DNA of 26,716 bases from Candidatus Eiseniibacteriota bacterium (lineage in GTDB: Bacteria > Eisenbacteria > RBG-16-71-46): assembly GCA_044222065.1 (NCBI GenBank), contig JBGAOA010000059.1, positions 1 through 26,716 on the forward strand, read 5' to 3'. Shown piece by piece: positions 2,886-21,409 of the stretch. Numbering within the stretch: position 1 is the first letter of the stretch; every line of letters starts with the position of its first letter. The position numbers were made by a program, and so were the translations under genes. Under the pieces are notes generated by a model, which saw only the letters and a list, made by a program, of their open reading frames with translations, was not told the DNA's origin and ran no database searches.

Positions 2886-3020
2886 CGCGGGCCCGGCGGC
2901 CTTCAGGGTGTGCGCTTTCGGGCGCTCGCCCGGTTGACCGTGCGGGAAAGCGCCGGTCGCGGCCCGGCGAACGCGGAGACTCCGCTTCGCGCCGGAGCGC
3001 GGCGCCCCGCGGAGCCTCGC

Positions 3021-4148
3021 ATGTCGCCACGCGTCGCCGTCGCCGCACTGATCGCGCTCGCCGCCGCGGCCCCTTCGGGCGCGCAGACCTTCTCGGGCAA
3101 CGCCACCGCGCTCGCCGAGGGCGCGACGACGCAGTACGTGACGCTCGGCGGCCTCGAGAGCACGACGGGACCGCTGTCGGCGAACGGCACGTGCTCGAAC
3201 GGCTCGGCGCAGTCGTGGCTGAGCGCGAGCAGCGGAGCCCTCGCGCTGCGCGCCGCCTGCGACGGATCGCCGTCGCCGAACTGCGTTCCGAACTCGTACG
3301 GGAACGGGAACTCCGCGTACTCGGGCAGCTTCGTCGTTCAGTCGGCCACGCTGCCGGCCGGCACCCTCGTGGACGTGTCGTTGTGCGTGAAGGCCGCGAT
3401 CCGGCACGGCATTCGATTCGGCTGCGGCGGCAGCGTCTTCGAAGGCGTGACGAGCGTCGCATCGGCCGAGATCTCGATCGTGCAGGGCACGTCGCCCGCC
3501 CTCGTCGCGCGCGGCGGGTACAGCGAGCGCTGGAACTGCTTCGACGGGCACTCGGTCACCGAGACCGGATTGTTCGCCGCCGGCGCCGGCGAGACGACGC
3601 TGACGGCCGCTCAGGTTCCGGTCGGAAGCGTGATGACCGTGTCGGCATCGCTCACGTGCGCCACGAGCGAGCAGTCTTTCTTCGGCCAGGATGCGGGCCG
3701 CATCGAGATGGCGGTCGTGTTCGGCTACTCGGCGAGCGGCGATGTGCGCCTCGTGTCGCTCGGCAGCGGCACCGAGCTGAGCCCGCTCTCGAATTGCTCG
3801 CTCGCGAACCTCGATCACTGGCTGCCGCCGGCGACCGGGACCGTGTCGGTCGAATCCGCGATCGACGGGCCGCGAGCGGTGCTGCTGCCTCCGACGCCTC
3901 AGCCCGCGCGCGGCGCCACGCGGCTGGCGTTTTCGATCCCGCGCGACGGCCCGGTGGAGCTGACGGTGTGCGACGTCGGGGGCGCCTGCGTCGCGCGCGT
4001 CACGAGCGGCTGGCGCCGCGCCGGCCGGCACGAACTCACGTGGGAGCCGCGCGATCGTCGGGACCGGGCGCTCGCGCCCGGGCACTACTGGCTTCGGCTC
4101 GTGACGCCCGAGGGACGGACCACGCGGAGCCTGCTCGTCGTGCGCTGA
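3021..4148 (+). CDS. Secreted Cys-containing protein of unknown function with a C-terminal FlgD-Ig-like domain (375 aa)
   Basis: ATG 3021 with GGAG at 3011-3014. Signal peptide MSPRVAVAALIALAAAAPSGA-Q. C-terminal PQPARG..RLAFSIP...VCDVGG...WEPRDRRDRALAPGHYWLRL...TRSLLVVR. Confidence 0.82.
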   Translation: MSPRVAVAALIALAAAAPSGAQTFSGNATALAEGATTQYVTLGGLESTTGPLSANGTCSNGSAQSWLSASSGALALRAACDGSPSPNCVPNSYGNGNSAYSGSFVVQSATLPAGTLVDVSLCVKAAIRHGIRFGCGGSVFEGVTSVASAEISIVQGTSPALVARGGYSERWNCFDGHSVTETGLFAAGAGETTLTAAQVPVGSVMTVSASLTCATSEQSFFGQDAGRIEMAVVFGYSASGDVRLVSLGSGTELSPLSNCSLANLDHWLPPATGTVSVESAIDGPRAVLLPPTPQPARGATRLAFSIPRDGPVELTVCDVGGACVARVTSGWRRAGRHELTWEPRDRRDRALAPGHYWLRLVTPEGRTTRSLLVVR

Positions 4149-4203: not shown

Positions 4204-5964
4204 TTACGAGGACGCGATCGGATCGGGGAGCGGCGCGCCGGGAGTCCACGCCGAATCCGAGAGCCGATCGAGCAGCGCCGTGACGTCCTGCCGCTGCGCG
4301 TGCGTCGTGAGCAGCAGGAGATCGCCGGCCCGCGACCACGCGAGCGCGGCGCGCACGGCGTCGAGTTCCGAATCCCAGCGGCTGAGCGCACTCGCGTCGA
4401 GTCCGCAGCGGCGCAACTCCGCTTCGATGAGCGCCGGAACGACGCCCGGCTCGCGTCCCCGCAGGTAGGGCGTGAGTTCCTTCACGAAGACGTGATCGGG
4501 TCGCATCGCGCCCGCGGTCCGCGCGAACTCGCGGATCGCGTCGTCGTCGCGGTCGCCCGCCTGTCCTATCACGAGCGCGCGACGCTCGGCGGGCAGTCCG
4601 GCGGCGAGCGCCGCGAGCGCCGTCAGGCCGTGCGGATTGTGCGCGAAGTCCACGATCGCCGTGACGCCCCCGAGGCGCCAGACGTTCGCCCGTCCGGGGT
4701 TCGTCCGCGGCCCGCCGTCGAACGCGCGCAGCCCGGCTCGGATCGCGGCGTCGGACAGCCCGAGGGCGCACGCCACGCCGATCGCGGCGAGCGCGTTCGC
4801 GACGTTGTGCGTCGCGGCGCCGCCGAACGCGATCGGCACGTCCGCGACCGGGACGATCGCGCGGCGCGCGGCGCCGTCGTACACGCACAGCACGCCCTCC
4901 TCGCACAGGCACACGTGATCGTCGGGGCGCGGCCGGGCCGCGATCACCGGGTGGCGCGGATCGAGCGTGAACCACGTCACGCGCGCATCGAGGCGTTCCC
5001 CGCGCGCGAGCAGGCGCGGGTCGTCGGCGTTCAGCACGACGCGCCCCTCGGCGTCCACCGCCTTCGCCACGACGAGCTTCACGTCGGCGAGCGTCTCGAG
5101 ATCGAAGACGCCGAATTCGCCGAGGTGATCGTTCGCGACGTTCGTGACGAGCGCCGCGCGCGTGCGCGGAATCGCGAGTCCGCGCCGCAGGATGCCCCCG
5201 CGCGCGACCTCGAGCAGCGCGATCTCGACGCGGCGGTCGCGCAGGGCCGTCCGAGCGCCGTTCGGTCCCGAGTAGTCGCCTTCGGCCACGACCTCGTCGC
5301 CGACCATCACGTGGTCCGTCGTCGTCGTGCCCGCGGTCTTCTCGGCCGCGCGCGCGATCGCCGCGAGCAGCCGGATCGTCGTCGTCTTGCCGTTCGTGCC
5401 GGTGACGAGGGCGGTCGGCACGTCGGCGACCGCGTCCCACGGGATGCGATCCATCACGTCCGCCGTCTCCTCGATTGGCCACGCACGCGAACCGCGGCCG
5501 AATCCGACCGAGACGCGCTTGTCGTCGACGAGCACCGTGACGCCGCGCTCGCGGGCGCTGCGGGCGAGCGGCGCGAACCACGGCTTCGTTTCGCGCGCGA
5601 TCGATTCGTGCAGCGCGGCGAGCACTTCCGGCGGCACCGAACCCGAGCCTTCGACCTCGAGTCCGCGGCAGGCCGCGGCCCACGCCGCTTCGTTGACCTC
5701 GGTCGCGGCGTAGAGCACGTCCGGCGGCGCGGCGAACGCGAGGCTGAGCCCGCCGGCGTGAGCCCGCGACGCCACGTCGTCGGTGTCCCATCCGAGCGCC
5801 GCGAGCGCCGTCCGGAGCGCGGAGCGCCACGCGACGACGGCGCGGTCGCGCTCGTCGGGCGCGAGCTCGACGTCGAGAATCGCGCCCGGGCGGTCGAGCA
5901 GCAGACTCGGGCCCGTGAGCCGGCGCGAGTCCACGACGCGCGCGATCACGGCCACGGAACGCAT
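4204..5964 (-). CDS. Cyanophycin-synthetase paralogue: N-like domain plus Mur-ligase domain, lacking the ATP-grasp domain
   Basis: N-terminal VVDSRRLTGPSL parallels LLDSSVYLGPSI of the adjacent CphA1. Mur motifs VTGTNGKTTT, LEVARGGILRRGL, NVANDHLG, LNADDP, PGRAN, DFAHNP and GDRDDD align one-to-one with the CphA1 M domain. No ATP-grasp segment. Confidence 0.88.
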   Translation of the reverse strand: MRSVAVIARVVDSRRLTGPSLLLDRPGAILDVELAPDERDRAVVAWRSALRTALAALGWDTDDVASRAHAGGLSLAFAAPPDVLYAATEVNEAAWAAACRGLEVEGSGSVPPEVLAALHESIARETKPWFAPLARSARERGVTVLVDDKRVSVGFGRGSRAWPIEETADVMDRIPWDAVADVPTALVTGTNGKTTTIRLLAAIARAAEKTAGTTTTDHVMVGDEVVAEGDYSGPNGARTALRDRRVEIALLEVARGGILRRGLAIPRTRAALVTNVANDHLGEFGVFDLETLADVKLVVAKAVDAEGRVVLNADDPRLLARGERLDARVTWFTLDPRHPVIAARPRPDDHVCLCEEGVLCVYDGAARRAIVPVADVPIAFGGAATHNVANALAAIGVACALGLSDAAIRAGLRAFDGGPRTNPGRANVWRLGGVTAIVDFAHNPHGLTALAALAAGLPAERRALVIGQAGDRDDDAIREFARTAGAMRPDHVFVKELTPYLRGREPGVVPALIEAELRRCGLDASALSRWDSELDAVRAALAWSRAGDLLLLTTHAQRQDVTALLDRLSDSAWTPGAPLPDPIASS

Positions 5965-6001: not shown

Positions 6002-8785
6002 TCAGTCGGTCAGCTCCGGTTCGCGCGCGAGCCGCACGCCACGCTCGTCGCGGATCAGTCCGCTCTCCTCGAGGTCGGGTCGCGCGTCGGCCACGAGTGC
6101 CGAAGGCGCCGTGCCGTCGGCCGCGTGCGGGTGCGCGTCGGCGGGATCGAACGTCACGACCTGGTGCCAGGTCCGCGCGGGATCGTCCGCGAACAGCAGC
6201 AGCAGGTCTCCGGCGCGCGCCGCGCGCAGGGCGAGGTCCACGGCTGCGCGCTCCTCGGGAACGATTTCGATCTGCTGCGCGGGCACGCCTTCTTCGAGCA
6301 GCGCCGAACGCAGCATGCGCGGGACCTCGTCGTGCTTGCGGCCCCTCAGCACGTCGTCGCGCCGGCAGATGTAGTGGTCGAAGTGCCCCGCGGCCGTGCG
6401 GCCGATCTCGGCGATGTCCTCGTCGCGGCGGTCGCCCGGCGCCGCGAGCACGCAGACGCGCTTCCCCCGGACCTCGAGCCGGTCCGCGAGCTGGCACATG
6501 GACGCGACCGCCGCCGCGTTGTGCCCGTAGTCCATGATCACCTTGAAGGGATGACGGTCGTAGACGTTCGTCCGGCCCGGCGCCTGGTCGAACGTCGTGT
6601 CGAACGTCCGAAGCCCCTGGCGGATGTCCTCGACCTTCACGCCCATCGCGTACGCGATCGCGGCGGCGAACATGGCGTTCTGGACGTTGTGGACCGCGCG
6701 GCCCTCGAGCGTGGCCGGGATCGCGTGCGTCCAGACGACCGGCAGGTGCAGGCCGCGGTCGAACAGCGTGATCATGAGACCGTTCACGCCCTCTTCGAGC
6801 CCGCACGCGCGGCCGCCCGCCCGGATGTGCTCCTTCACGAGCGGGTACTGCGTCTGCTGCGTCACGTAGCAGAGGTGCTTCGCGTGCGTGTGGTCCGCCA
6901 TGCGCAAGCAGCGCGGATCGTCGGCGTTCAGCACCGCCGTGTCCTGCGCGACCTCGACGACGACGCGCTTCACCTCGGCAAGCTGGTCGAGCGTCTCGAC
7001 GCCCTTGAGCCCGAGGTGGTCGCTCTGGATGTTGAGCACGGCGCCGACCGTGTTCTTCCGGTAGGCGAGTCCGCGCCTCAGAATGCCGCCGCGCGCGGTC
7101 TCGAGCACCGCCACGTCCACGCTCGGATCGCGAAGCACCATGCGCGCCGCGATCGGTCCGGTCATGTCGCCGGGCACCGTGAGCTGGCCGTTGATGTACA
7201 CGCCGTCGGTCGTCGTCAGGCCGACGGTGCGTCCGGCGAGCTTCAGCACGTGTGCGACCATGCGCGCCGTCGTGGTCTTGCCGTTCGTGCCCGTGATGCT
7301 CGCGATCGGGACGCGCGTCGGCGTACCGGGCGGGAACAGCATGTCCATCACGGGCCCGGCCACGTCCCGCGGCGTGCCCTCGCTCGGAGCGACGTGCATG
7401 CGGAAGCCGGGCGCGGCGTTCACTTCGCAGATCGCTCCTCCCGCGTCCTTGTAGGACTCGGTGATGTCCGGCGAGATGAAGTCCACGCCGCCGACGTCGA
7501 GGCCGATCGCCCGGATCGCGCGGATCGCCATCTCGACGTTGTCGGGGTGGACGATGTCCGTGACGTCGATCGCGGTGCCGCCGGTCGAGAGATTTCCCGT
7601 GAGCCGTAGCGGCACGACCGCATCGCGCTCCGGCACGGAGTCCGGCGTCAGCCCCTGGTCCGCGAGGCAGCGCTCCGCCTGAGCGTCCAGTTCGAGCCGC
7701 GTCAGAACCTTCTCGTGACCGATGCCGCGTCGCGGGTCCTGATTCGTCCGCTCGACGAGGTGGCGCACCGTGCTCGCGCCGTCGCCGATCACGCGCCCCG
7801 GCACGCGCTCGGCCGCGGCGATCAGCTGGCCGTTCACGACCAGCATGCGGTAGTCGCGACCGGTGACGAACGACTCCACGATCACCGCGCGGCTGTACTC
7901 ACGCGCGGATTCGAACGCCGTCCGCACCTGCGAGGTGCTGCGCAAATCGAGCGACACGCCGCGGCCGTGATTGCCGTCGTAGGGCTTGACCACGACCGGG
8001 AAGCCGAGCTTCTGGCCGGCGATCGCCGCCTCCTCCTCGGTCCACACGAGCCGCTGCTGCGGCACCGGGAGTCCGAGCATCGTGAGGATGCGGTTCGTCT
8101 CTTCCTTGTCGGAAGCGATCTCGACCGCGATGTGGCGGGTCTCGCTCGTGATCGTCGCCTGGATGCGCCGCTGGTACCGCCCGTGGCCGAACTGGACGAG
8201 GCTCTGGTTGTTGAGCCGGATCACCGGAATGTCGCGCGCCTCGGCGGTGTGCACGAGCGCGGCCGTGCTCGGCCCGAGCGCGCGCCGCTGCGTGAAGCGA
8301 ATGAACTCGTCGCGCGCCGATGCGAACTCGAAGCCCTCGGGGGGCGCGTTCTCGGGGCGAAGTTCGGCGGGAACGAGCGAGTGCAGCAGGTGCATCGCGA
8401 GGCGGCCCGCCTCGAGGCCGACCTCGGCTTCCTCGTACTCGTACACGACGTCGTAGACGCCGGGCGCGCCGGCCTCGCGGGTCTTGCCGAACGTGACCTT
8501 CGTGCCGGCTTCGCTCTGGAGTTCGATCGCCACGTGCTCCAGCACGTGGCCGAGCCACGTGCCGTCGTCTTCGGTGAGGCGCCGGACGAATCCGCCCGGC
8601 TCGCCGTAGGAGCACCCGTGCTCGCGCAGCCCGGGAAGTGCGCCGAGGAGCGCGTCGATGAAGCCGCCGCCGAGCTTGCGGCTCGGCCACGCCTCGAGCG
8701 GGCCGAGGTCGACCGTCAGCCGGATGACGGGGAAGTGGGCGTAAATGCTCGGTCCGAGGTAGACCGAGGAGTCGAGCAGCTTCAT
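6002..8785 (-). CDS. cphA: Cyanophycin synthetase CphA1 (927 aa)
   Basis: N domain (HGCS..GGF..RL...GTWLGHVLEHVAIELQ), LGPST, ATP-grasp domain (PVVVKPYDGNHGRGV, NLSTGGTAIDVTD, EVNAAPGFRMH) and Mur domain (ITGTNGKTTT, ETARGG, DHLG, DYGHN, GDRRD). Confidence 0.97.
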   Translation of the reverse strand: MKLLDSSVYLGPSIYAHFPVIRLTVDLGPLEAWPSRKLGGGFIDALLGALPGLREHGCSYGEPGGFVRRLTEDDGTWLGHVLEHVAIELQSEAGTKVTFGKTREAGAPGVYDVVYEYEEAEVGLEAGRLAMHLLHSLVPAELRPENAPPEGFEFASARDEFIRFTQRRALGPSTAALVHTAEARDIPVIRLNNQSLVQFGHGRYQRRIQATITSETRHIAVEIASDKEETNRILTMLGLPVPQQRLVWTEEEAAIAGQKLGFPVVVKPYDGNHGRGVSLDLRSTSQVRTAFESAREYSRAVIVESFVTGRDYRMLVVNGQLIAAAERVPGRVIGDGASTVRHLVERTNQDPRRGIGHEKVLTRLELDAQAERCLADQGLTPDSVPERDAVVPLRLTGNLSTGGTAIDVTDIVHPDNVEMAIRAIRAIGLDVGGVDFISPDITESYKDAGGAICEVNAAPGFRMHVAPSEGTPRDVAGPVMDMLFPPGTPTRVPIASITGTNGKTTTARMVAHVLKLAGRTVGLTTTDGVYINGQLTVPGDMTGPIAARMVLRDPSVDVAVLETARGGILRRGLAYRKNTVGAVLNIQSDHLGLKGVETLDQLAEVKRVVVEVAQDTAVLNADDPRCLRMADHTHAKHLCYVTQQTQYPLVKEHIRAGGRACGLEEGVNGLMITLFDRGLHLPVVWTHAIPATLEGRAVHNVQNAMFAAAIAYAMGVKVEDIRQGLRTFDTTFDQAPGRTNVYDRHPFKVIMDYGHNAAAVASMCQLADRLEVRGKRVCVLAAPGDRRDEDIAEIGRTAAGHFDHYICRRDDVLRGRKHDEVPRMLRSALLEEGVPAQQIEIVPEERAAVDLALRAARAGDLLLLFADDPARTWHQVVTFDPADAHPHAADGTAPSALVADARPDLEESGLIRDERGVRLAREPELTD

Positions 8786-8926: not shown

Positions 8927-9766
8927 CTACTCGTCGCTCTCCGCGCGCACCGCGGTCGCGCGGCGCAGATGCAGGTTGTAGCGCGCGCCCTGCAGCAGCA
9001 CGTGCAGCTTGATCCCGATGAGGCTCACGGGCTCACCCTGCTTGGCGTGGTCCATCGACGAGTACTCCATCTCGCCGGGATCCACGATCGTCACCGCACC
9101 GCTGCCCACGACCTCGAGCGTGTCGTCGGGTCCGATGAAGGCCGCCGTGTCCTCGTCGAGGCCGAGCCCGTGCGCGAACGGATTGTAGGCGAGCGCCGTG
9201 AGCAGTCGCCCCAGCCGGTCCCGCTGGCGGAAGTGCTGGTCCACGACGACGCGATTGGTCAGTCCGAGGCCCGGCGCGAGTGACACCATTCCCGCGCGCG
9301 GCGTCGAACCTTCCTCTCCGAACGCGATCATGTGCTCGGAGAGGAATGCGGCGCCGGCCGAAGTGCCCGCGACGTGGACCCCGTGCGCGTTCATGATCCG
9401 GAGCGCCTTCGCGACCGGCGTGCCGCCGAGCGTCGTGCCGAGTCGCAGCTGGCTGCCTCCCGTCAGGAACACGCCCGTGGCCTTCTCGAGCACGGACAGC
9501 TCCTCTCGATCCTCGCACTGCTTGCGCGACTCGAACGGGAGCACCCACACCTTGCCGGCGCGCAGATCGCGGAACAGCGCTTCGTAGCGCCGTCCCGTGT
9601 CGCGCAATTCCGACGCCGTCGGCAGCACGGCGATGCGCGCTTCGCGGCGACCGGCCAATTGGACGAAGCGCTTGAGAATCGCCTCGTCGCCGATCTTGTC
9701 CTCGGCGCCGCCGATCGGAATGATGAAACCGCGTTCTTGCCCCTCGGGCACGCGGGATGGGCTCAC
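8927..9766 (-). CDS. cphB: Cyanophycinase CphB (peptidase S51), cytoplasmic
   Basis: IIPIGGAED, FLTGGSQ, GTSAGA (catalytic Ser), DQHFRQRDRLGRL (catalytic His plus the cyanophycin-binding D-Q-H..R.R..R pattern) and GLDEDT (Glu). GTG start with SD GAGGAGG, no signal peptide, adjacent to cphA. Confidence 0.96.
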   Translation of the reverse strand: MSPSRVPEGQERGFIIPIGGAEDKIGDEAILKRFVQLAGRREARIAVLPTASELRDTGRRYEALFRDLRAGKVWVLPFESRKQCEDREELSVLEKATGVFLTGGSQLRLGTTLGGTPVAKALRIMNAHGVHVAGTSAGAAFLSEHMIAFGEEGSTPRAGMVSLAPGLGLTNRVVVDQHFRQRDRLGRLLTALAYNPFAHGLGLDEDTAAFIGPDDTLEVVGSGAVTIVDPGEMEYSSMDHAKQGEPVSLIGIKLHVLLQGARYNLHLRRATAVRAESDE

Positions 9767-10507: not shown

Positions 10508-11776
10508 CTACGGCGCGAGTCGAACCGTCCGCCGGACGCGCTGCTCCGTACCCGCGGCGAGGCGCACGAAGTAGATGCCCGACGGCAGCCGCTCGCCGCG
10601 GTCGCTCGTGCCGTTCCACTCGACGGCGTGCGCGCCCGCGGCGCGCGACTCGCCGTCGACCAGCGTCCGCACGCGCCGCCCGCTCACGTCCAGCACTTCG
10701 AGCCGCACTTCGGCGGCGTGCGGCAGCGCGAAGCGCACGAGGGTGTTCGAGCGAAAGGGGCTCGGGATGGGCGAAGCCAGCGCGAGTCCGTCCGCGATCG
10801 CGAGCGGCTCGACGTCCGAGTTGCCGCCCGTGACAGTGAGTCGCGCGAGGCTGCTGGGTTCGATCGTGGGGCCGTCGGTCACGATACAGTCGTACACGCC
10901 GGTGTCCGCGACCGCGACGTTCGCGATCACGAGATGGTTCGTCGTCGCGCCGCTGATTCGCCCGCCGTCCGAGAGATTCACGTAGTTGCGTCGCCATCGG
11001 TACGTGAGCGCCTGCAGCCCCGGTGCATCCAGCGGGGTCGTGCCGCTCGCGCCGACGCTGAACGACGCCGTCGCGCCCGGCGCCACCGTCTGGCTCTGGG
11101 GATGCTGGCCGATCAGCGGATCGGGCACCTCGTAGAAGGCCACCTGAATGCTCGCCGCGTTCGGACTGCCGTTCTCCGTTTCGTCCTTGTAGTAGTTCTC
11201 GTAGTAGAGGAAGTAGAGGCCGGGAGCGAGACGCCCAGACTGCGTCGGCCCCGGCAGCAGCGCGAGGAGTTGGAGGTCCTGAGCCAGGCCACTCGCCAGG
11301 AACGCCGTCATACGCCTCGATGCGAAGTTCCCCTCACCGACGACGGGGTAGGCGATGTAGTTCTGCGTGCGCGGAACGTAGAACCACACGAACACGAGCG
11401 CCCCACCGCCGTTCTTCGCGCCCGGTCCATCGGCCGAGCCGAAGCCGCTCGATTGAATGCCGAACACCGAATCGCCGAAGCTGGTCGAGAGGTACATGTT
11501 CGCGAACGCGTGCGAATCGGTCGTGTCGTTGTCGGCGCTGCTGAACGGCATCCCGGCCCACGAGGCTGGGCCGGGGGGAGCGGACGACTGCTGGTCCACG
11601 ACGCTGCCCGCTTCGGACTTGGTCGTGACGCCCGCGAGGTTGCCGGACCATGGCGCGACCTCGACGCGGGCGCTTGCGAACTCGCCCACGGCGGCGATCG
11701 AGAGGAAGAGCACGGCGGCGCCGATTCCCAGCGCGATTCGAGCAGAGAGCGGCGAGGTCTGAGGACGAGCGAGCAT
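10508..11776 (-). CDS. Secreted protein with an immunoglobulin (I-set-like) domain and a C-terminal FlgD-Ig-like domain
   Basis: Hydrophobic N-terminal signal. Ig motifs HPQSQTVAPGATASFSV...LTYRWRRN...L.I.NV...DTGVYDCIVT. C-terminal PSPF..NT.VRFAL...LDVSGRRVRTL...WNGTSDRGERLPSGIYFVRL. Confidence 0.88.
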   Translation of the reverse strand: MLARPQTSPLSARIALGIGAAVLFLSIAAVGEFASARVEVAPWSGNLAGVTTKSEAGSVVDQQSSAPPGPASWAGMPFSSADNDTTDSHAFANMYLSTSFGDSVFGIQSSGFGSADGPGAKNGGGALVFVWFYVPRTQNYIAYPVVGEGNFASRRMTAFLASGLAQDLQLLALLPGPTQSGRLAPGLYFLYYENYYKDETENGSPNAASIQVAFYEVPDPLIGQHPQSQTVAPGATASFSVGASGTTPLDAPGLQALTYRWRRNYVNLSDGGRISGATTNHLVIANVAVADTGVYDCIVTDGPTIEPSSLARLTVTGGNSDVEPLAIADGLALASPIPSPFRSNTLVRFALPHAAEVRLEVLDVSGRRVRTLVDGESRAAGAHAVEWNGTSDRGERLPSGIYFVRLAAGTEQRVRRTVRLAP

Positions 11777-12136: not shown

Positions 12137-12829
12137 ATGCTTCGTCGCTTTGCTACAGCCCTTGCGGTTCTCGCCTGCGCGGCGCTCGTTCAGCCCGCGC
12201 ACGCCGTCGACGTGACGGTCAATCCCGCCACGATCAACCTCGGCTTCATGAACGTCAGCAACCTGCCGGCGCCGGACGGCGACGGCGCCTACCAGTTCGG
12301 AAGCCCGTGGGGCTTCGCCGACCTCAACGCCAGCTACTCGGGCAGCAACCTCACGCTGAGCCCCAACACGATCGGCGATCCGAACGAGTACTGGTATCGC
12401 TGCGTCGGCTCGGCGACCCCGCCGAACTGCGGCGGTCCGGGCGCGCCCGGCAACAAGATCATGGAGGCGAACGGCTACGCCGAGATCAACGACGGCTCGC
12501 TCGCCGGGCAGACCGTGAGCTTCAGCGGAATCGTGATGTCGAACTCGCTCACGTCGGCGCACGTCGCGTACGCCTTCGTGAAGGACTTCGCAGCCGACTA
12601 CTCGTCGTTCAACGCGCAGGTGATCCCGGTGCCGGCATCGGGTTCGTTCGTCGTGTCGCTGAACACGGTGAACGATCCGTCTCGCCACGTGCAGTACGGC
12701 TTCCAGATGGTGGGCGTCAACGTGTGGGCGACGGACGTCGGGCCGTTCGGCTCGGTGACGATCGGTCCGTATCTGCCGACGCCGTCGAAGTCCGCGTCGT
12801 GGGGCCGGATCAAGACGCTCTATCGCTGA
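12137..12829 (+). CDS. Secreted protein of unknown function ending in the SWGRIKTLYR tail
   Basis: SD AGGAGG, signal peptide ending PAHA-V, strong GC3 codon bias, C-terminus PTPSKSASWGRIKTLYR*. Confidence 0.88.
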   Translation: MLRRFATALAVLACAALVQPAHAVDVTVNPATINLGFMNVSNLPAPDGDGAYQFGSPWGFADLNASYSGSNLTLSPNTIGDPNEYWYRCVGSATPPNCGGPGAPGNKIMEANGYAEINDGSLAGQTVSFSGIVMSNSLTSAHVAYAFVKDFAADYSSFNAQVIPVPASGSFVVSLNTVNDPSRHVQYGFQMVGVNVWATDVGPFGSVTIGPYLPTPSKSASWGRIKTLYR

Positions 12830-12979: not shown

Positions 12980-14476
12980 TCAGTCGCCCGCGTTCGCGAC
13001 CTTCGCGAGCCGCCGGATCGAAGGCGCCGCGCGCACGACCGCGGCTCTCAGTCGATCGGCGTCGGTGGCGCCGTAGTTGACGACGAGTCCGCGCCACGGG
13101 CGGCGAGCGCGGTGATAGCGCGACAGCGCCGCCGCCGAGAGCCCGGCGCGCCGCGCCTCGCGCGCGATCGCGACGTCGTCCACGCCGCCGTCGAGGTGCG
13201 CGAGAACGTGCAATCCCGTCGCCGCCGGGCCGAGCCGCACGCGATCGCCCCAGTGGGTGGCGATCGCCTCGAGCAGTGCGTCGCGATGACGCGCGTAGCG
13301 CAGGCGACTCTGGCGCAGGTGCGCGGCGAGCCTGCCCGTCGCGAGGAACTCGGCCAGCACCGCCTGGAGGAGCGCCGGCGGCGGCCCGCTCGCGATGCGC
13401 CGCGCGGCGACGAACGGCCCGACCCACGCCTCGGGCAGCACGACGTACGCGAGACGCAGCCCGAGAAGAAGCACCTTGTTCCAGGTGCCGAGGTAGAGAA
13501 CGCGCCCCTCGGGATCGAGCGACTGAAGCGCCGCGATCGGGCGGCCGTCGTAGCCGAACTCGCTGTCGTAGTCGTCCTCGAGGATCCACGCGTCGTTCCG
13601 TGACGCCCACCGGAGCAGTTCGAGCCGGCGTCCGAGCGCGAGCGGCACGCCGAGCGGGAACTGGTGCGAGGGCGTGACGTAGGCAAACATGCGCGCGCCC
13701 CGCGCGGCAGCGCACAGCGATCACGATGCCGTCGCGGTCCACCTTCACGGGCCGCAGTCTGCGCCGCGGCCGCGAAGGCCGCGTGGGCTCAAGTACCCCG
13801 GGTCCTCCACGACGACGCCGTCGCCGGGATCGAGCATCACGCGCGCGGCGAGGTCGAGCGCTTCCTGAGTGCTCGAGAGCACGAGCACCTGCTCGGCGCC
13901 GCAGTGGAGACCGCGCGAGAGCCCCGCGTGCGCGGCGATCTCGCGGCGCAGTTCGAGCGAGCCCTGCGCATCGCCGCTCACCATCCACGACTCGCCGCCA
14001 CGCCGCGCGCGGCGCGCGAGCAGGCGCGTCCATTCACGAACGGGGAAGCGCGCGAGATCGGTTGCGCTCGTCCCGACCGCGCCGTCCTGTCGCAGCTCGC
14101 TCGTTCCGAGCGCGTGCAGGCGCTGGCCCCGCGCCGAGGGTCGCGCGCGTGTCGCGCGCAGCGCCGCCGGACCCGGCGAAGGCGCGCGCTCGGCGACGGA
14201 CGCCGAGACGACCGTCCCGGCGCCGACGCGGCGCTCCAAGAAGCCCTCGGCGACGAGCTGGGCGAACGCGGTCTCGACCGTGTTGCGCGCGAGGCGCAGT
14301 TCTGCGGCGAGGGCGCGCGCGCTCGGCAGGCGTTCGCCCGGAGCGAGCCGGCCCGCGAGCACGTGCGCTCGCAGCTGGCGGTAGAGCCGGCGGTGGAGCG
14401 GACCCTCGTCCCCGGGCCGCGTGACCCAGCGCAGATCGCGGGCGAGCGCCTTCGGAACGGGAAGGGAGCGCTTCAT
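12980..14476 (-). pseudogene. MocR/GabR-family regulator (GntR wHTH plus PLP-dependent aminotransferase-like domain), disrupted by clustered frameshifts at about 13690-13790 (pseudogene or sequence error)
   Basis: The 5' ORF has LYRQLRAHVLAGRLAPGERLPSARALAAEL..ARNTV..A..QL.AEGFL and VVVEDPGY. A second frame carries RLRPVKVDRDG. The 3' ORF has YVTPSHQFPLG, WILEDDYDSEF and YLGTWNKVL..GLRLAY. Confidence 0.88.
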
Positions 14477-15200: not shown

Positions 15201-15817
15201 TCGGACGACCGGCGGTCCCCGCCTCGATCACGCGACGCGACCTGCTGCGCGGCGGCGCCCTGCTCGCGACGGCGCCGTGGCTGTTGCGCGCCTCGGCGGC
15301 GTTCGCCACCGGCTCCGCCGCTGCCGCCGACAGCGCCGCGACGCGGCCCGCGGGCGTGCCCGAGGGGAGCCCGGGGGAGTTCGACTTCCTTCAGGGCGAA
15401 TGGCGCATCGCCCATCGCTGGCGAAAGGACGCGGCCTCGAAGGAGTGGATCGCGTTCGACGGGCAGGCGACGTGCTGGAGCATCCTCGGCGGCATCGGCA
15501 GCGTCGAGGAGCTGCGCATCCCGGCACGCAACTTCAGCGGCATGGGGCTGCGGCTCCTCGACGTCGAGCGAAAGCTCTGGTCCGACTTCTGGGTGAACTC
15601 GAACAGCGGCGTGCTGGTCTCGCCGGGAACGTACGGGGGATTCCGCGGCGGTGTGGGTACGTTCGTCTCGGAGGACGCCGAGGGCGATCCGCCGACGATG
15701 GCGCGCGGCGTCTGGGATCGCATCACCGGAAGATCCCATCGCTGGTCGCAGGCGGTGTCGTTCGATCGTGGCGCGACGTGGGCCGAGACGTGGGTCATGG
15801 AGTGGAAGAAGGCGTGA
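15197..15817 (+). CDS. Tat-exported DUF1579-like beta-barrel protein (206 aa)
   Basis: ATGA overlap with the DinB stop. Twin-arginine motif TRRDLL plus an h-region and AFA site. Core FDFLQGEWRI.HR...W..F.G...GMGLR.......WS..W...W.QA.S.D.G.TW..TW.M. Confidence 0.8.
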   Translation: MIGRPAVPASITRRDLLRGGALLATAPWLLRASAAFATGSAAAADSAATRPAGVPEGSPGEFDFLQGEWRIAHRWRKDAASKEWIAFDGQATCWSILGGIGSVEELRIPARNFSGMGLRLLDVERKLWSDFWVNSNSGVLVSPGTYGGFRGGVGTFVSEDAEGDPPTMARGVWDRITGRSHRWSQAVSFDRGATWAETWVMEWKKA

Positions 15818-15983
15818 GGCTTGCGCCCGTGGACGCGCACGACGCGTTCCGTATCGCGCGGGGGACCCCGTGTGCGAACCGCGATGGAATCTCGAAGCAT
15901 CGCGCGCCGCGGCCGTGCTAGCTTCGGGACGGCGACGACACGCGCCGCCGCGAAATGGAGCCTTGGACAAGGACGACCCCCTC

Positions 15984-16784
15984 ATGCGCGACCGCTACCT
16001 GCTTCCGCTCGCACTCTTCGCCGCGCTGTCGTTCGGCGCAACGCCGGTGACGGCCCTGACCCTCGACACGTTTTCTACCACGCTTCCGCCCAATCCCTGC
16101 CTGCCGGTGACGGGCCAGCCGGTCGTGTTCCTCGGCCCGTTCTGCGACGGCGCCGCCTGTCCGCCGGACGCGTTCGCGGCCTGCGTCGGGCCCTCCGCTT
16201 CGCAGTCGGGCGCCGCGGGCGTCTATGCGGGCACGCGACGGGACGTCATCGTGCACAACTGGCTCGACGAGCCCACGCGCGCCTTCGTGGATCCCGCGAC
16301 CCACACGCTCCGCGCCGACTTCGGCGGCGTGTCGGAATCGCTGGTCGACGTCTTCTACGGCACGCCGTTCGACGCGACGCCCGCGGCGGACGCGCTCAAC
16401 CTCGACCTCGTCGCGCTCGGCGGCAGCGAGTTCCGCTTTCTCGTGGACGGCGACTTTTCCGATGCGAATCCGATCGGGATCGAAGTGATCGTGCTGTCGG
16501 ACGCCGCCGTCACCCCGCGTCCCTCGGCCACGGCGCGCATCACGCTCGACACGCCGGGCATCGTCAGCATTCCCTTCGTCGAATTCGTTCCGGATCTCGG
16601 CTTCACGTTCGCGGACGTGGACGACATCCAGATCACGCTCTCGAACTGCACGAACTTCGACAGCGGCTGCGGTGACCGCGAAGTTCCGCCGCTTCACCTC
16701 GCCATCGGCCCGATCGACATCGTGACCGCTCCGGTGGCGACCGTTCGCACCTCGTGGGGGAGGCTCAAGGCCTCGTACCGCTGA
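15984..16784 (+). CDS. Secreted protein of unknown function ending in the SWGRLKASYR tail (266 aa)
   Basis: ATG 15984 with AAGGA upstream and an extended -10-like TGcTAGCTT at 15916-15924. Signal peptide ending PVTA-L, Cys pairs, C-terminus PVATVRTSWGRLKASYR*. Confidence 0.85.
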   Translation: MRDRYLLPLALFAALSFGATPVTALTLDTFSTTLPPNPCLPVTGQPVVFLGPFCDGAACPPDAFAACVGPSASQSGAAGVYAGTRRDVIVHNWLDEPTRAFVDPATHTLRADFGGVSESLVDVFYGTPFDATPAADALNLDLVALGGSEFRFLVDGDFSDANPIGIEVIVLSDAAVTPRPSATARITLDTPGIVSIPFVEFVPDLGFTFADVDDIQITLSNCTNFDSGCGDREVPPLHLAIGPIDIVTAPVATVRTSWGRLKASYR

Positions 16785-17432: not shown

Positions 17433-18275
17433 TCAGCGATAGAGCACTTTCAGCCTTCCCCAGCTCGTCGTGCGCGCCGGCACCGGGTCGCCGCCCACGG
17501 TCAGGCCGAGCACCGTGTCGATTTCGTCGTCGCCGTCGTGCTGGTACGCGCCGCGTCCGCCCGCGACCACGTTCACGTAGCGGAACGTCTGACTTCCCGG
17601 GAGCTTCCACACCGTCGTGAAGCCGTCGGCGATCCAGGTGCTGATCCACCCTTCGAGGTAGACCTTCACGAGCGACGCGTACACCCAATCGGTGTTGCCA
17701 TCCGTGCCCTCGACCGTCGCGTTCGGATTGTTCGACAGGAAGACGGAGTACTCGATCGCCTCCTCGGGCAACGGCGTGTGGTCGATGATCGGGAAGACCG
17801 CGACCTGATTCGCCTGACCGCCGAGGTCCCACTTGTTCCCGGTGGCGAGATCGCCATCGCCATTGTCCTGCACCCACCACATGTCGAGGCAGCGACCGCG
17901 ATCGGCGTAGTCGGCGAGCGTCGCCGCGCCGCACGAGTACGCATAGGAAGGCGGGTCGTAGCTGTATCCCGAGCAACCTTCCACGTTCCCCACGTACGTG
18001 CTCAGCAGTCCGTTCGGCGGCATGCTGCCGCACGCCGTACCCGGCAGCGTGAACGTCGCAGCGTATGCGGACGTGTGAGGGAAGACGGCGTCGTCGAGAA
18101 TGGACGCGCTCACCAGGTCCTGCCGCGTCGCATATCCGAGCAGGGCGCGGAAGGTCTCGACCGTGGCGCCCTGCCAGGAACGCGGGTCGTTGGGATCGGT
18201 GATCGGAGCCGCGGGGACGGGACGGGGAGTCAGGAGCAGCAGCGTGACGACCGCGAACTTCGCGACGGCTTTCAT
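17433..18275 (-). CDS. Secreted protein of unknown function ending in the SWGRLKVLYR tail (280 aa)
   Basis: ATG 18275 with GGAG 5 nt upstream. Signal peptide MKAVAKFAVVTLLLLTPRPVPA-A, Asp-rich motifs (DNGDGD, HDGDDEID), C-terminus PVPARTTSWGRLKVLYR*. Confidence 0.87.
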   Translation of the reverse strand: MKAVAKFAVVTLLLLTPRPVPAAPITDPNDPRSWQGATVETFRALLGYATRQDLVSASILDDAVFPHTSAYAATFTLPGTACGSMPPNGLLSTYVGNVEGCSGYSYDPPSYAYSCGAATLADYADRGRCLDMWWVQDNGDGDLATGNKWDLGGQANQVAVFPIIDHTPLPEEAIEYSVFLSNNPNATVEGTDGNTDWVYASLVKVYLEGWISTWIADGFTTVWKLPGSQTFRYVNVVAGGRGAYQHDGDDEIDTVLGLTVGGDPVPARTTSWGRLKVLYR

Positions 18276-18646
18276 GGGGACTCCGGCGTGGGGGTGGCAC
18301 ACGGGCAGCGCGAGCGAGGCACGCAGAATACGCGAGCGCGAATCGCCATCGAGCGCAGAATCGTGCCGTGGCCATTCGCGCGGCCGGTCGTCCGATGCGA
18401 CTAAACACGCTTGCCTCGAGCAGTAGAGATCCCGGGGCCAGCACTACAACTCGGCGAAGAGCGGGACTAATATGGCGACGCAACAGCCCCGCGCGGCCGC
18501 GTGAAACCAGCAGGGCTTACGTCCCGAGCAGGTCTACCGCGTCGCCGCGTTTCGAGACCGGGCCTCGCTCCCCGAATCGTTTCGAGAGCGTTCGGTCGTT
18601 CGCTGGAGACCGTTCCCGTTCGGGCGCACTCGCGGAAGGAGCGGCC

Positions 18647-21409
18647 ATGATTCGTGCCACCGGCACCGGTGCGGTGATCCTCGCGCTCACTGCGTCCCTC
18701 GCATTCGCACAGCTTCCCGCCGTTCACGATCTCGGACTGCTGCCCGGGGATACCTCGGTGTCGCCCGCGGTCAGCGAACAGGTGGAATTCTCCGTCGCGC
18801 GCGGCGGCGACCAGTACCTCGTGGTCTGGTCGGACTATCGCGGCGCTGCCGTCCGTACGGATGCCCAGCAGAGCGCGGTCGACGTATTCGGCATCCGACT
18901 CGATGCTCAGGGCGCCCCGATCGATGCGGCACCGTTCCTCGTCGCGGGGGGCATGGGAACACAGAACCGCCCGCTCGTCGCGTGGAACGGGACCGCGTGG
19001 CTCGTCGTCTACGTTTCACAGGATCCGGTCGCCGCGTACTACGACAACGTCATGCGAGCGGTGCGCGTTTCCGCTGCGGGGCAGATACTCGACGCGACGC
19101 CGATCAGTTTTCCGCCGACCGAGTTCTCCCCGAACACCGTCGGAATGCAGGTCAGCGGACAGAACGGCCAGTGGCTCGTCACCCGCTGCATCTACCACTC
19201 GGACGGGTACGGAACGTACCTCGCGGGGCAGCGCATCGACGGAAACGGAGCCCTGCTCGATCCCGACCCCGTCATGCTGATCGACTGGATCTACGGTGCA
19301 ACCGTCTCGTTCGCGGTCAACGGCGAATACGTCGTCGGGGGACCCGATTGGACGAACTACACCGCGAGCGCGCGGCGAATCGCGCAGAACCTCCAGCCCA
19401 TCGGGGCCTCCTACTCGGTGCCGAGCCTCTCGATGGCGAGCAGTGGCAGCGAACTCTACATGGTGTGGGTGAAGGACTACGTGAATCTCGTAGGATCCCG
19501 CATGACCCCGTCGGGGACGCTGCTCAATCCGGCCGGCACCATGATCCTGCCGAACTTCACGCAGCTCGGCGAGACCACGCTCGCTCACGACGGCACGCAA
19601 TGGTGGCTCGAATACGGCGTCAACGACCAGCTCCACACCATTCGCATCAGCGCCGCCGGGGCCGTGATCGACGCGAACGGCGGGCCGCTGCTGCCCATCA
19701 CGATCGGCGGTAACGTGATGACCGCCTACGGACCGCACCTCGCAGGCCGTCCCGGGGGCGGCGTCCAGTTCCTCTGGTACGACTACCGCATCGCGCTCGG
19801 GAACGACGGCAACGTGTTCACGCTGCCCGTGTCGGCCGCAAACGTCCCGGGATCCGAACGTCTGGTTTCCACCGGCACGCGCAGTCAGCGCGGCCCGGAT
19901 TTCGCGCCGGGGCCAAACGGAACGTCCGCGATCGTGTTCGTGAGCGAAGCGGCGAACGATCGCCGCGTGCTCGTTCACTTCCTCGACGCCAGCGGCGCCG
20001 CCGTGAATGCCGAGCCGCTCCTGGTCGCGAGCGGGGCCTCGATCGGGAACGCCGGCATCGCCTGGAACGGCTCGCAGTATCTGGTCACGTGGGACGGCGG
20101 CACGACCGGCAATGCGCTGCTGCCGATCAAGGCCCGGCGAATGAACTCCGACGGCTCGTTCGTGGACGCCGCGCCGCTCGACGTGATGGCGGGGTTCGAT
20201 CCCGATGTCGAGGCGCTCGGCAACAACTTCCTGATCGCCTGCGCGCGTGCGGTCAACTTCCAGACGATCACGGCCTACATGCGCATCGTGAACGGCGCGA
20301 ACGGCGCCTTCCTCAATGCGGCCACGCCCGTCGGCGGCGGCTACGTGCGCGTGGGTCCACGCGTGAAGTCGAACGCCACGCAGTGGATAATCACGTACGA
20401 CAGCAACTGGACCCACGACTCGAGCCAATCGGATGCCGTCTATCACATCGTGAACGCCGACGGCTCGATCGTCGCCGGCGTCAATCCGACCGGCAGCTTC
20501 GGTGGAAGCGGCACGCCAGACATCGCGTTCTCGGGGAGCAAGTACCTGTTCGTGTGGCGCAGCAACTCGCTCTCGAACGCGAACAACTACGTCTCCGGTC
20601 GAGTGATCAACGCCGACGGCAGCTTCGCGACGAGCCCGTTCGTCATCGCCGAGGCGCTCGGGCGCCAGCTGCGCCCCGTCGTGGGATGGGACGGCACGAC
20701 GTTCGTCGTGGTGTGGGACGACCAGCGGAACCAACAGTCGTTCTTCGATGAGCGCACGGATCTCTATGCCGCGCGTGTCAGCACTGCAGGCGTCGTGCTC
20801 GACCCGAACGGATTCCCCGTGTGTGCCGGTCCGCAGGGAGACGCGGCGGCCGCGCTGATCACGTGGCCGGACGGCCGCGCGCTCGTCGCCTCCGCGCGAT
20901 TCTCGGTCGCTCCACCGTGGGACTCTTATCGCATCGGTCTGCACGGGACCGGTCCCGAGGCCCTCGCCGCGTCCGGAGACGCACGGACCGTGACGATGTT
21001 CCGTGGGAGCGCGCCGAACCCCCTGCGGCAAAGCACGTCGATCGCCTACGTGCTCGCGCGCGAAGCCCCGGTGTCGCTGACCGTGCACGACGTTCAGGGA
21101 CGGCTCGTTCGAACGCTGATCGCGGGCGAGTCGCGTTCCGCCGGTCCCCACGAGGTGGAGTGGGACGCGCGCGCGGAGTCCGGACGCCGTGTTTCGGCCG
21201 GAGTCTATTTCTGCGCGCTGAGTGCGGACACGAAGACGGAGGTGAAGCGCCTCGTCGTGCTGGATCCCGGTCCACGGTGGAGTGCGGCCGCAGACTCTCC
21301 GTGGCTCCCGACGACGTCACTTGCTTTCGCTCGATCCGCGGCTCCCCCGGCCGCACGCGGTCGGGCGTCGGCGACCCGCAGCTGCGGCGGCTTCGGCGCG
21401 GGGGCGTGA
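18647..21409 (+). CDS. Large secreted repeat protein (probable tandem beta-propellers) with a FlgD-Ig-like domain and a 47-aa C-terminal extension (920 aa)
   Basis: SD AAGGAG before ATG 18647 and signal peptide ending LAFA-Q. About 14 repeats of the VAWNGxxYLVVW...RxxxxG type. APNPLRQST.I.Y.L...VHDVQGRLVRTL...WDARAESGRRVSAGVYFCAL...KRLVVLD. Confidence 0.88.
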   Translation: MIRATGTGAVILALTASLAFAQLPAVHDLGLLPGDTSVSPAVSEQVEFSVARGGDQYLVVWSDYRGAAVRTDAQQSAVDVFGIRLDAQGAPIDAAPFLVAGGMGTQNRPLVAWNGTAWLVVYVSQDPVAAYYDNVMRAVRVSAAGQILDATPISFPPTEFSPNTVGMQVSGQNGQWLVTRCIYHSDGYGTYLAGQRIDGNGALLDPDPVMLIDWIYGATVSFAVNGEYVVGGPDWTNYTASARRIAQNLQPIGASYSVPSLSMASSGSELYMVWVKDYVNLVGSRMTPSGTLLNPAGTMILPNFTQLGETTLAHDGTQWWLEYGVNDQLHTIRISAAGAVIDANGGPLLPITIGGNVMTAYGPHLAGRPGGGVQFLWYDYRIALGNDGNVFTLPVSAANVPGSERLVSTGTRSQRGPDFAPGPNGTSAIVFVSEAANDRRVLVHFLDASGAAVNAEPLLVASGASIGNAGIAWNGSQYLVTWDGGTTGNALLPIKARRMNSDGSFVDAAPLDVMAGFDPDVEALGNNFLIACARAVNFQTITAYMRIVNGANGAFLNAATPVGGGYVRVGPRVKSNATQWIITYDSNWTHDSSQSDAVYHIVNADGSIVAGVNPTGSFGGSGTPDIAFSGSKYLFVWRSNSLSNANNYVSGRVINADGSFATSPFVIAEALGRQLRPVVGWDGTTFVVVWDDQRNQQSFFDERTDLYAARVSTAGVVLDPNGFPVCAGPQGDAAAALITWPDGRALVASARFSVAPPWDSYRIGLHGTGPEALAASGDARTVTMFRGSAPNPLRQSTSIAYVLAREAPVSLTVHDVQGRLVRTLIAGESRSAGPHEVEWDARAESGRRVSAGVYFCALSADTKTEVKRLVVLDPGPRWSAAADSPWLPTTSLAFARSAAPPAARGRASATRSCGGFGAGA

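Follow-up and report, generated by a model that had tools for sequence, protein, structure and literature searches.

Why does a cyanophycin gene cluster that already encodes a complete CphA1 carry, just downstream of it, a CphA paralogue whose polymerizing domain is missing? Cyanophycin synthesis is thought to need CphA1 or CphA2 only, which are the two synthetases described in the portions consulted of bioRxiv 2023.04.15.537035, PMC10206079, and PMC9974463, and the consulted parts of bioRxiv 2022.11.30.518518, PMC5178258, and PMC11362209 give the same two-synthetase picture. A third enzyme that, in the three lineages tested, is nearly always kept with CphA1 and that probably has a different amino acid pocket points to an unknown step in polymer composition, chain termination, or salvage, and the discussion section of PMC9427784 presents the control of cyanophycin chain length as an open question. 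Here, we analyze such a locus in a contig of 26,716 nucleotides from a Candidatus Eiseniibacteriota bacterium (referred to below as the window).

A CphA paralogue without its ATP-grasp domain

On the minus strand of the window, cphB (positions 8927..9766; cyanophycinase, TIGR02069 at 265.6 bits with a cut-off of 126.6) is followed by cphA1 (6002..8785; a full N-G-M cyanophycin synthetase of 927 residues, TIGR02068 at 1135.8 bits with a cut-off of 850) and then by the gene for a protein of 586 residues (4204..5964; P0001), which we call the N'+M protein and which was delimited by its ORF, Pfam, TIGR02068, and a structural model. As the earlier note had read from the ORF coordinates, 37 bases separate the cphA1 stop at 6002 from the beginning of this gene on the same strand; its start codon may be an ATG at position 5964 or, slightly further downstream by a few codons, a GTG. 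Its GC3 of 0.91 is like that of cphA1, and no promoter or terminator consensus was found between positions 3900 and 10600 of the window.

The note had also claimed that the protein is an N+M paralogue without ATP-grasp domain within a cphB-cphA1 operon, and the Pfam and TIGR02068 scans together with model superposition bear this out, the N domain by structure only. Above cut-off, Pfam recognizes only Mur_ligase_M (residues 187 to 398; 73.9 bits, cut-off 24) and Mur_ligase_C (residues 425 to 553; 49.2 bits, cut-off 28.4), which places the protein in the Mur ligase superfamily, with no ATP-grasp family and no PF18921 above cut-off, whereas the neighboring CphA1 has PF18921, ATP-grasp, and both Mur domains. 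TIGR02068 is matched over profile positions 473 to 852 only, and the score of 354.8 bits lies below the CphA1 cut-off of 850. In BLASTP, residues 159 to 552 are 39% identical to residues 468 to 864 of the neighboring CphA1.

Upstream of this region, residues 124 to 167 align without gaps to CphA1 residues 168 to 211 (score 38, reached by 2 of 1,000 shuffles), a remnant of the start of the G-core consisting of a helix and a G-x-G hairpin (5464..5589, minus strand; approximately CphA1 170 to 211), in which G154 and G156 are conserved in 100% and 98% of 122 sequences. The junction or linker that follows (5419..5463, minus strand; BLASTP alignment) corresponds approximately to the end of the G-core (CphA1 ~478 to 491). 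Since the hairpin and the P-loop are separated by 35 residues here and by 299 in CphA1, approximately 265 residues, comprising the whole ATP-grasp site, are missing. The deletion itself is thus as previously proposed; its size is slightly less than the suggested 280 or so residues, and the junction narrows from 5400-5510 to about 5420-5490. By Pfam, TIGR02068, and the model, the ATP-grasp domain that would carry the G-site set H267, R309, R323, N394, S396, and R458 is absent, and with this site missing, the protein cannot polymerize, just as the note had argued.

The M half is retained. Its core (4705..5418, minus strand; delimited by Pfam and residue comparison) has the P-loop GTNGKTT (5380-5400, minus strand) and its lid (4249..4704, minus strand; Pfam and residue check) keeps R425, D439, and H442; the P-loop, E-x-ARGG, N-x-x-x-DH, LNADD, and DFAHN motifs are all in the protein, as listed before.

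The N' domain (approximately residues 9 to 125; 5590..5940, minus strand) has a predicted CphA N fold, and because its sequence is barely recognizable, this identity rests on predicted structure. HH-align gave a probability of 21% over the first 32 residues only, and profile comparison by itself gives no proof of N-domain homology. For an AlphaFold2 model of the N'+M protein built from 44 sequences (pLDDT 92.7, pTM 0.91), the nine top Foldseek matches were all CphA1 structures (TM 0.83 by query length for 7wae_A), and VIA superposed 549 of the 586 residues on CphA1 7lgq with an rmsd of 3.2 Å and a Z of 36.4, spanning model residues 8 to 571 against chain residues 1 to 872. As N' and M superpose together on CphA1, they are predicted to be placed as in CphA1, with G removed. 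When residues 1 to 180 of the model were compared with 48,161 chains, CphA2 7ta5 came first (Z 9.5, 163 residues aligned, 4.7 Å) and AbCphA1 of A. baylyi (7lgm) second (Z 7.6, 164 aligned, 4.8 Å), with unrelated folds close behind at Z 7.2. R14, R15, G18, D82, and E92 are conserved in N', while the HxxEH peptidase motif, whose absence had been remarked on before, occurs in none of the 122 family N-regions; the Cx19HxxEH primer-making site is given for 83% of CphA1 in the consulted part of PMC9262961. A complex prediction for the CphA1 G domain (165 to 492) with the N'+M protein scored 0.00 and carries no weight either way.

Elsewhere in the window, a MocR/PdxR-type regulator (12980-14476, minus strand) is split into two ORFs, which match NF052281 at positions 16 to 223 and 257 to 473, as a frameshift at around 13,700-13,800 would produce. 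Three proteins (12137-12829 and 15651-16784, plus strand; 17433-18302, minus strand) have N-terminal hydrophobic leaders and share an end motif similar to S-W-G-R-[IL]-K-x-x-Y-R, which looks like a C-terminal sorting signal; none of them has an NCBIfam match. Tails resembling FlgD_ig or T9SS type A are found on secreted-type proteins at 1839-2885, 2910-4148, 10508-11776, 18368-21409, and 24634-26700.

An old family inherited with one CphA1 subclade

The N'+M family was found in at least seven phyla. Among the best 120 of 6126 word-search matches, 119 were homologues of 489 to 655 residues with 52 to 70% identity, the closest named ones among the matches listed belonging to Candidatus Eisenbacteria and Acidobacteriota. 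A profile of 44 homologues yielded a best 150 representatives (50% clustering), mostly full-length, from which 121 of 550 to 620 residues, with 33 to 52% identity, were kept in the alignment and 29 partial, fused, or split rows were left out. The GTDB scan gave at least 75 loci. Subfamily 1, to which the N'+M protein belongs, accounts for at least 8 GTDB loci in Acidobacteriota, Pseudomonadota, Planctomycetota, and Myxococcota, with cphA and cphB adjoining in 8/8; subfamily 2, G-less to the point of having no G remnant, is found at 11 or more GTDB loci in Actinomycetota and Chloroflexota/Thermomicrobiota. Cultured hosts of the family include Luteimonas, Kribbella, Terrabacter, and Plesiocystis; WP_344760523.1 of Luteimonas lutimaris and WP_406056003.1 of Kribbella are two of its members.

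In a 120-row M-domain tree, subfamilies 1 and 2 form one clade outside CphA1 (SH-aLRT 98). In a careful 40-row tree, support was 95/90 for the G-less clade and 81/53 for CphA1, within which all sampled partners and one alphaproteobacterial enzyme made up a subclade (99/99). A clade uniting subfamily 1 with its partner CphA1s was rejected by the AU test (p-AU 0.0003). By the Nei-Gojobori method, dN/dS was 0.19 to 0.41 in four subfamily-1 pairs and 0.10 to 0.12 in two subfamily-2 pairs, values that the extreme GC3 probably inflates; cphA1 gave 0.07 to 0.26, and the N'+M value was the higher one in five of six pairs. That the gene is a decaying or recent tandem duplicate of its neighbor, a reading for which its position next to cphA1 and this faster evolution could be cited, is therefore hardly credible: the tree and the conservation across the 121 full-length representatives refute it, as do the AU result and a dN/dS below 1 in all six pairs. 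The homologues, by the searches and by genome counts in three lineages, are likewise not sporadic, which, like a dN/dS near 1, the earlier note had regarded as the mark of such a duplicate.

We conclude that the family is real, old, and under selection. It is also apparently uncharacterized: members are named "Mur ligase family protein" or "cyanophycin synthetase" in databases, the clusters in the Atlas are all automatic ones, labeled "Mur ligase" or "putative cyanophycin synthetase", and no cyanophycin protein or characterized CphA class of N+M architecture was found in the portions of the literature covered. According to section 12 of PMC10687191, Tetrasphaera has two copies of cphA that differ in length, with lower expression of the shorter copy, which may be a subfamily 2 member.

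Several variant forms were observed. A third G-less form, represented by one Sarcina locus among the GTDB matches listed (L075:7668-9239, plus strand), has the same G remnant and a lid closer to that of CphA1; its gene is unlinked to cphA, which lies elsewhere in the same genome. In the 120-row tree, long branches connect it to a clostridial CphA1, so that its position is unsettled, and it possibly represents an independent loss of G. Subfamily 2 proteins of the Terrabacter group have a TPR-like C-terminal tail of approximately 180 residues (L049:9993-12251, L071:8934-11216, and L077:8985-11258, all on the minus strand). P0134 (972 residues; two cluster members) is a naturally fused protein from a low-GC organism that joins an M domain of CphA1 type to N'+M; its locus was not found in metagenome contigs. 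Another fused form, P0272, the one match among 7843 longer candidates, was rejected as an artefact because both the linker and the tail resemble read-through in a shifted frame. At a further locus, a cyanophycinase (L014:11636-13366, minus strand) has, with its start as called, an N-terminal extension of approximately 280 residues with no Pfam match.

Co-inheritance with one CphA1 subclade is near-strict in the three lineages tested, with the provisos that kin are non-independent in such counts and that absence from a draft genome is weak evidence. Among 101 genomes of the source phylum, the N' query and PF18921 match the identical 11 (11/11). Of the 200 Luteimonas-family genomes that were scored, the N' and cphA queries match 57 each and both match 55, the exceptions being two cphA-only genomes (G274 and G312, of the tandem betaproteobacterial type) and two with N'+M only. 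Two unpublished genomes are counted here, namely G331, which has N'+M only, and G357, which has both but with no more than a 56-residue frame; when they are left out, 54/55 are shared. Of 121 genomes of the Terrabacter family, 82 have subfamily 2 and 81 have cphA, all 81 in common. Over the three lineages, three of 150 N'+M-bearing genomes, all draft assemblies (G218, G331, and G480), gave no cphA match. At 14 co-oriented loci, the N'+M gene starts between -4 and 80 bases after the cphA1 stop; in the Terrabacter family, a convergent arrangement is usual and one pair lies megabases apart, and in Actinomycetota, the N'+M gene often stands behind fabG/fabI-like genes in a separate transcription unit.

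Four of 50 other cphA genomes in which the fetched locus lacked a full partner have one elsewhere, and the three of these that are in the tree fall inside the partner CphA1 subclade; the 50 include cyanobacterial, Bacteroidota, and betaproteobacterial genomes, and the family was found in none of these. The link is not obligate, since four genomes with a CphA1 of the partner subclade (G151, G153, G146, and G114) gave no family match even when searched with the full profile. No conserved fourth gene hinting at a substrate appeared among 85 neighbors chosen from 30 loci. RNA at a Luteimonas locus came from five weak runs, the four inspected being mixed-organism contigs that may hold DNA.

Catalytic residues, the lid pocket, and the putative reaction

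With Spirulina CphA1 as the residue ruler, 18/18 published residue numbers were matched. In this numbering, the family keeps N497, K499, T500, T522, E558, R561, D585, H586, N696, R731, D745, H748, R777, and the RGR motif, most of whose roles are named in sections 7 and 10 of PMC9427784 and the consulted part of PMC9262961. Nine of these (N497, K499, T500, T522, E558, D585, H586, R731, and H748) are kept, or exchanged between T and S, in 98 to 100% of 122 subfamily-1 sequences and in 11/11 of subfamily 2. P0001 itself has the equivalents of K499 in the P-loop, T500, T522, E558, D585/H586, R731, and H748 that mark a CphA1 M domain, the kept core residues in its own numbering being K193, T194, T216, E252, R255, D279, H280, and N390. 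In 50 M columns, identity reaches 85% or more both in CphA1 and in the N'+M family. The partner CphA1s have canonical residues at all three sites, N (C/H/E/H), G, and M, and no defect was found at the known residues; the extra gene therefore patches no visible defect. These data agree with the suggestion that the protein is a stand-alone side-chain ligase: it is probably an active M-type ligase, conserved and tied to cyanophycin genes.

By contrast, three lid loops differ in a conserved way between the family and CphA1, as emerged from the comparison of the Arg-binding pocket that had been suggested. In alignment, loop 1 reads GDRD (4546..4557; GDRR in CphA1, GGDR in MurE), loop 2 KELTPYLRGR (4453..4482; x-x-D-x-x-x-RGR in CphA1, aligned to DNPR of MurE), and loop 3 HAQR (4291..4302; a conserved D/E in CphA1, near GKGHE of MurE), all on the minus strand. 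R778, present in 96% of CphA1, is replaced by S/D/T/A/P; position 801, D/E in 94% of 72 CphA1 sequences, is L/M/I in 75% of subfamily 1; and in place of D857 (D/E in 94% of CphA1), the family has H555 (73%) and R558 (70%). Loop 2 also contains a one-residue insertion and Y500, the latter in 70% of one subfamily and 100% of the other, in the order 1 and 2. Subfamily 2 is more variable at positions 496, 497, and 555. The α-carboxylate binder R472, which corresponds to R389, is retained in 98 to 100%.

According to the consulted part of bioRxiv 2022.01.05.475093, the MurE loops GGDR, DNPR, and GKGHE bind the incoming amino acid, and the Lys-specific enzyme of S. aureus uses R383 and, for Lys, the acidic D406 and E460. 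Because the lid loops align with these, D801 and D857 of CphA1 look like recognizers of Arg or Lys, an assignment that depends on MurE homology, since the lid Arg site is unseen in the CphA1 structures consulted; the comparison between the N'+M protein and CphA1 in turn points to residues of that site. With both acidic residues lost and the α-carboxylate Arg retained, the rebuilt pocket probably accepts an amino acid other than arginine, which lends support to the earlier idea of a different substrate. The acceptor side of the M-core has changed as well (an aromatic at 537, S542 to G/A, R567, and E589 in CphA1 numbering; the family-specific Y/W/F231 [92%/99%], G/A236, R261, and E/D283 of P0001), and thus the acceptor may differ from the terminal Asp. 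Residues 533 to 566 of CphA1 are said, in work by Sharon et al. from 2021, to line the polymer site.

Our preferred reading, held tentatively, is a trans-acting ATP-dependent ligase that would add a non-basic amino acid to the terminal Asp of cyanophycin. In this scenario, the N' domain would hold the chain made by the partner CphA1, the M-core would phosphorylate the free β-carboxyl of the newly added terminal Asp as the CphA1 M site does, and the lid would bring in an acidic or neutral polar α-amino acid in place of Arg or Lys, with Glu, Asp, Gln, and citrulline as candidates, the choice among which is a guess. Glu side chains in cyanophycin are known under nitrogen limitation (PMC8560796, in part). 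According to section 7 of PMC9427784, the CphA1 G site requires Arg on the terminal unit for extension, and as the partner G site is canonical, the residue so attached would be either a co-monomer of minor abundance or a chain cap setting length, solubility, or turnover. A counterpoint is that E/D496, found in 88% of subfamily 1 one residue before the lost D801, together with the insertion, could still bind a basic side chain.

It is this acidic residue, which could stand in for D801, that along with the intact catalytic residues and N-M geometry would suit a second Arg/Lys ligase, for instance a Lys-preferring or gap-filling one that boosts or repairs the side-chain step and yields ordinary or Lys-rich cyanophycin; CphA1s accept Lys, ornithine, or citrulline (PMC8560796, in part). 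Such an enzyme seems unlikely, however, as three independent lid loops are altered, two acidic residues are lost and His/Arg gained, and a plain duplicate would be hard to keep across phyla beside an intact partner M site. A changed acceptor is doubtful too. Here, the enzyme would activate the α-carboxyl either of a side-chain Arg, giving branch extension or cross-links, or of the β-Asp-Arg dipeptide, in which case β-Asp-Arg released by CphB and Asp would give (β-Asp-Arg)-Asp, the minimal CphA1 primer, in a salvage role analogous to that of CphA2. The acceptor-side changes fit this, the His/Arg lid would suit Asp, and (β-Asp-Arg)-Asp primes CphA1 while β-Asp-Arg does not (PMC9262961, in part). 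Neither IaaA-family nor IadA matches were found in 23 of 38 family-bearing genomes; IadA (TIGR01975) and IaaA (PF01112) were also not found in the source genome (94% complete) or in 10 family-bearing relatives of its phylum, where the dipeptide-splitting step is thus unaccounted for. Yet 27% of cphA1 genomes have neither dipeptidase anyway (PMC9974463, in part), IadA occurs in 7/38 genomes, mostly beside cph genes, R561 is conserved in 100% and R566 in 100% of subfamily 1, and primers are not lacking, since 25/25 partner CphA1s have an intact N site for primer making. An isoaspartyl dipeptidase replacement running backwards was ranked low because IadA stands beside cph genes in several family-bearing genomes. 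Amidohydrolases beside cph genes were also seen at L017 and L018, and PF04952 gave no match (0/5) with a 76-position sub-domain as query, a poor test for CphZ.

A mainly binding or regulatory partner, that is, an ATP- and polymer-binding subunit joining CphA1 oligomers or coating granules and tuning synthesis or CphB access, might explain the G-core remnant of subfamily 1, the natural fusion P0134, and the faster evolution relative to CphA1, but we consider it quite unlikely given that acyl-phosphate and lid catalytic residues are near-invariant at below 50% identity, as in active enzymes, and that subfamily 2 has lost the remnant. A further alternative is a small-molecule Mur-type ligase with a non-cyanophycin substrate, for which the cph linkage would reflect shared nitrogen regulation or co-transfer. 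The fabG/fabI-like context in Actinomycetota and the bare Mur ligase database name would allow it; the predicted retention of the CphA-specific N fold and the rarity of family-bearing genomes with no cphA match make it very unlikely.

Whether the N'+M protein represents a third dedicated cyanophycin enzyme class, a tailoring ligase that acts with its co-inherited CphA1 subclade to produce a polymer of different chemistry, is in our judgment evenly balanced. If so, non-basic side chains, capped chains, or residues on the Arg carboxyl would be expected, and the cyanophycin of Actinomycetota, Xanthomonadales, Acidobacteriota, Chloroflexota, and candidate phyla would not be plain poly(β-Asp-Arg). 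A stand-alone side-chain ligase would also serve as a tool for producing cyanophycin variants.

Comparison with known systems

With MurE and MurF, the N'+M protein shares the P-loop, the GDR arginine, and the fold of both M-core and lid, for which Z reaches 26.5. It differs in having neither their UDP-binding N domain nor DNPR, in the place of which KELTPYLRGR stands, and all Mur models score far below cut-off (MurE model TIGR01085 at 77.2 bits, cut-off 257.3); a separate, DNPR-bearing MurE is encoded in the same genome.

The tandem cphA pairs of Betaproteobacteria go by the names CphA3/CphA3'. At tandem-type loci that we sampled (L032, L040, L044, L046, L066, L070, L083, and L084), the upstream gene encodes N, G, and a truncated M, and the downstream gene a degenerate N, G, and a full M. 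As described in parts of PMC10687191 and PMC11362209 for Cupriavidus/Ralstonia and Accumulibacter, such pairs likewise consist of two adjacent genes that divide the intact parts between them. Unlike the N'+M gene, both keep the G domain, and the family was found in none of nine genomes of this type.

CphA2 (PDB 7TA5) is, like the N'+M protein, a single-site CphA1 derivative with a non-catalytic N domain, and it is the top structural match of N'. The protein had been called the mirror image of CphA2, which holds for function only: the cyanobacterial CphA2 has an active G and retains a truncated, inactive M with neither P-loop nor lid, whereas the N'+M protein keeps M and has deleted G almost entirely. 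The closest likeness is to CphA1 (TIGR02068; PDB 7LG5, 7LGQ, and 7WAE), with which it shares the M domain at the identity given above, all tested M catalytic residues, the gene cluster, and, in the model, the N fold and the relative geometry of the two domains, while the ATP-grasp domain and Cx19HxxEH are gone, the lid pocket is rebuilt, and the M clade is separate. The N'+M protein thus stands outside both CphA1 and CphA2 and resembles the M half of CphA1.
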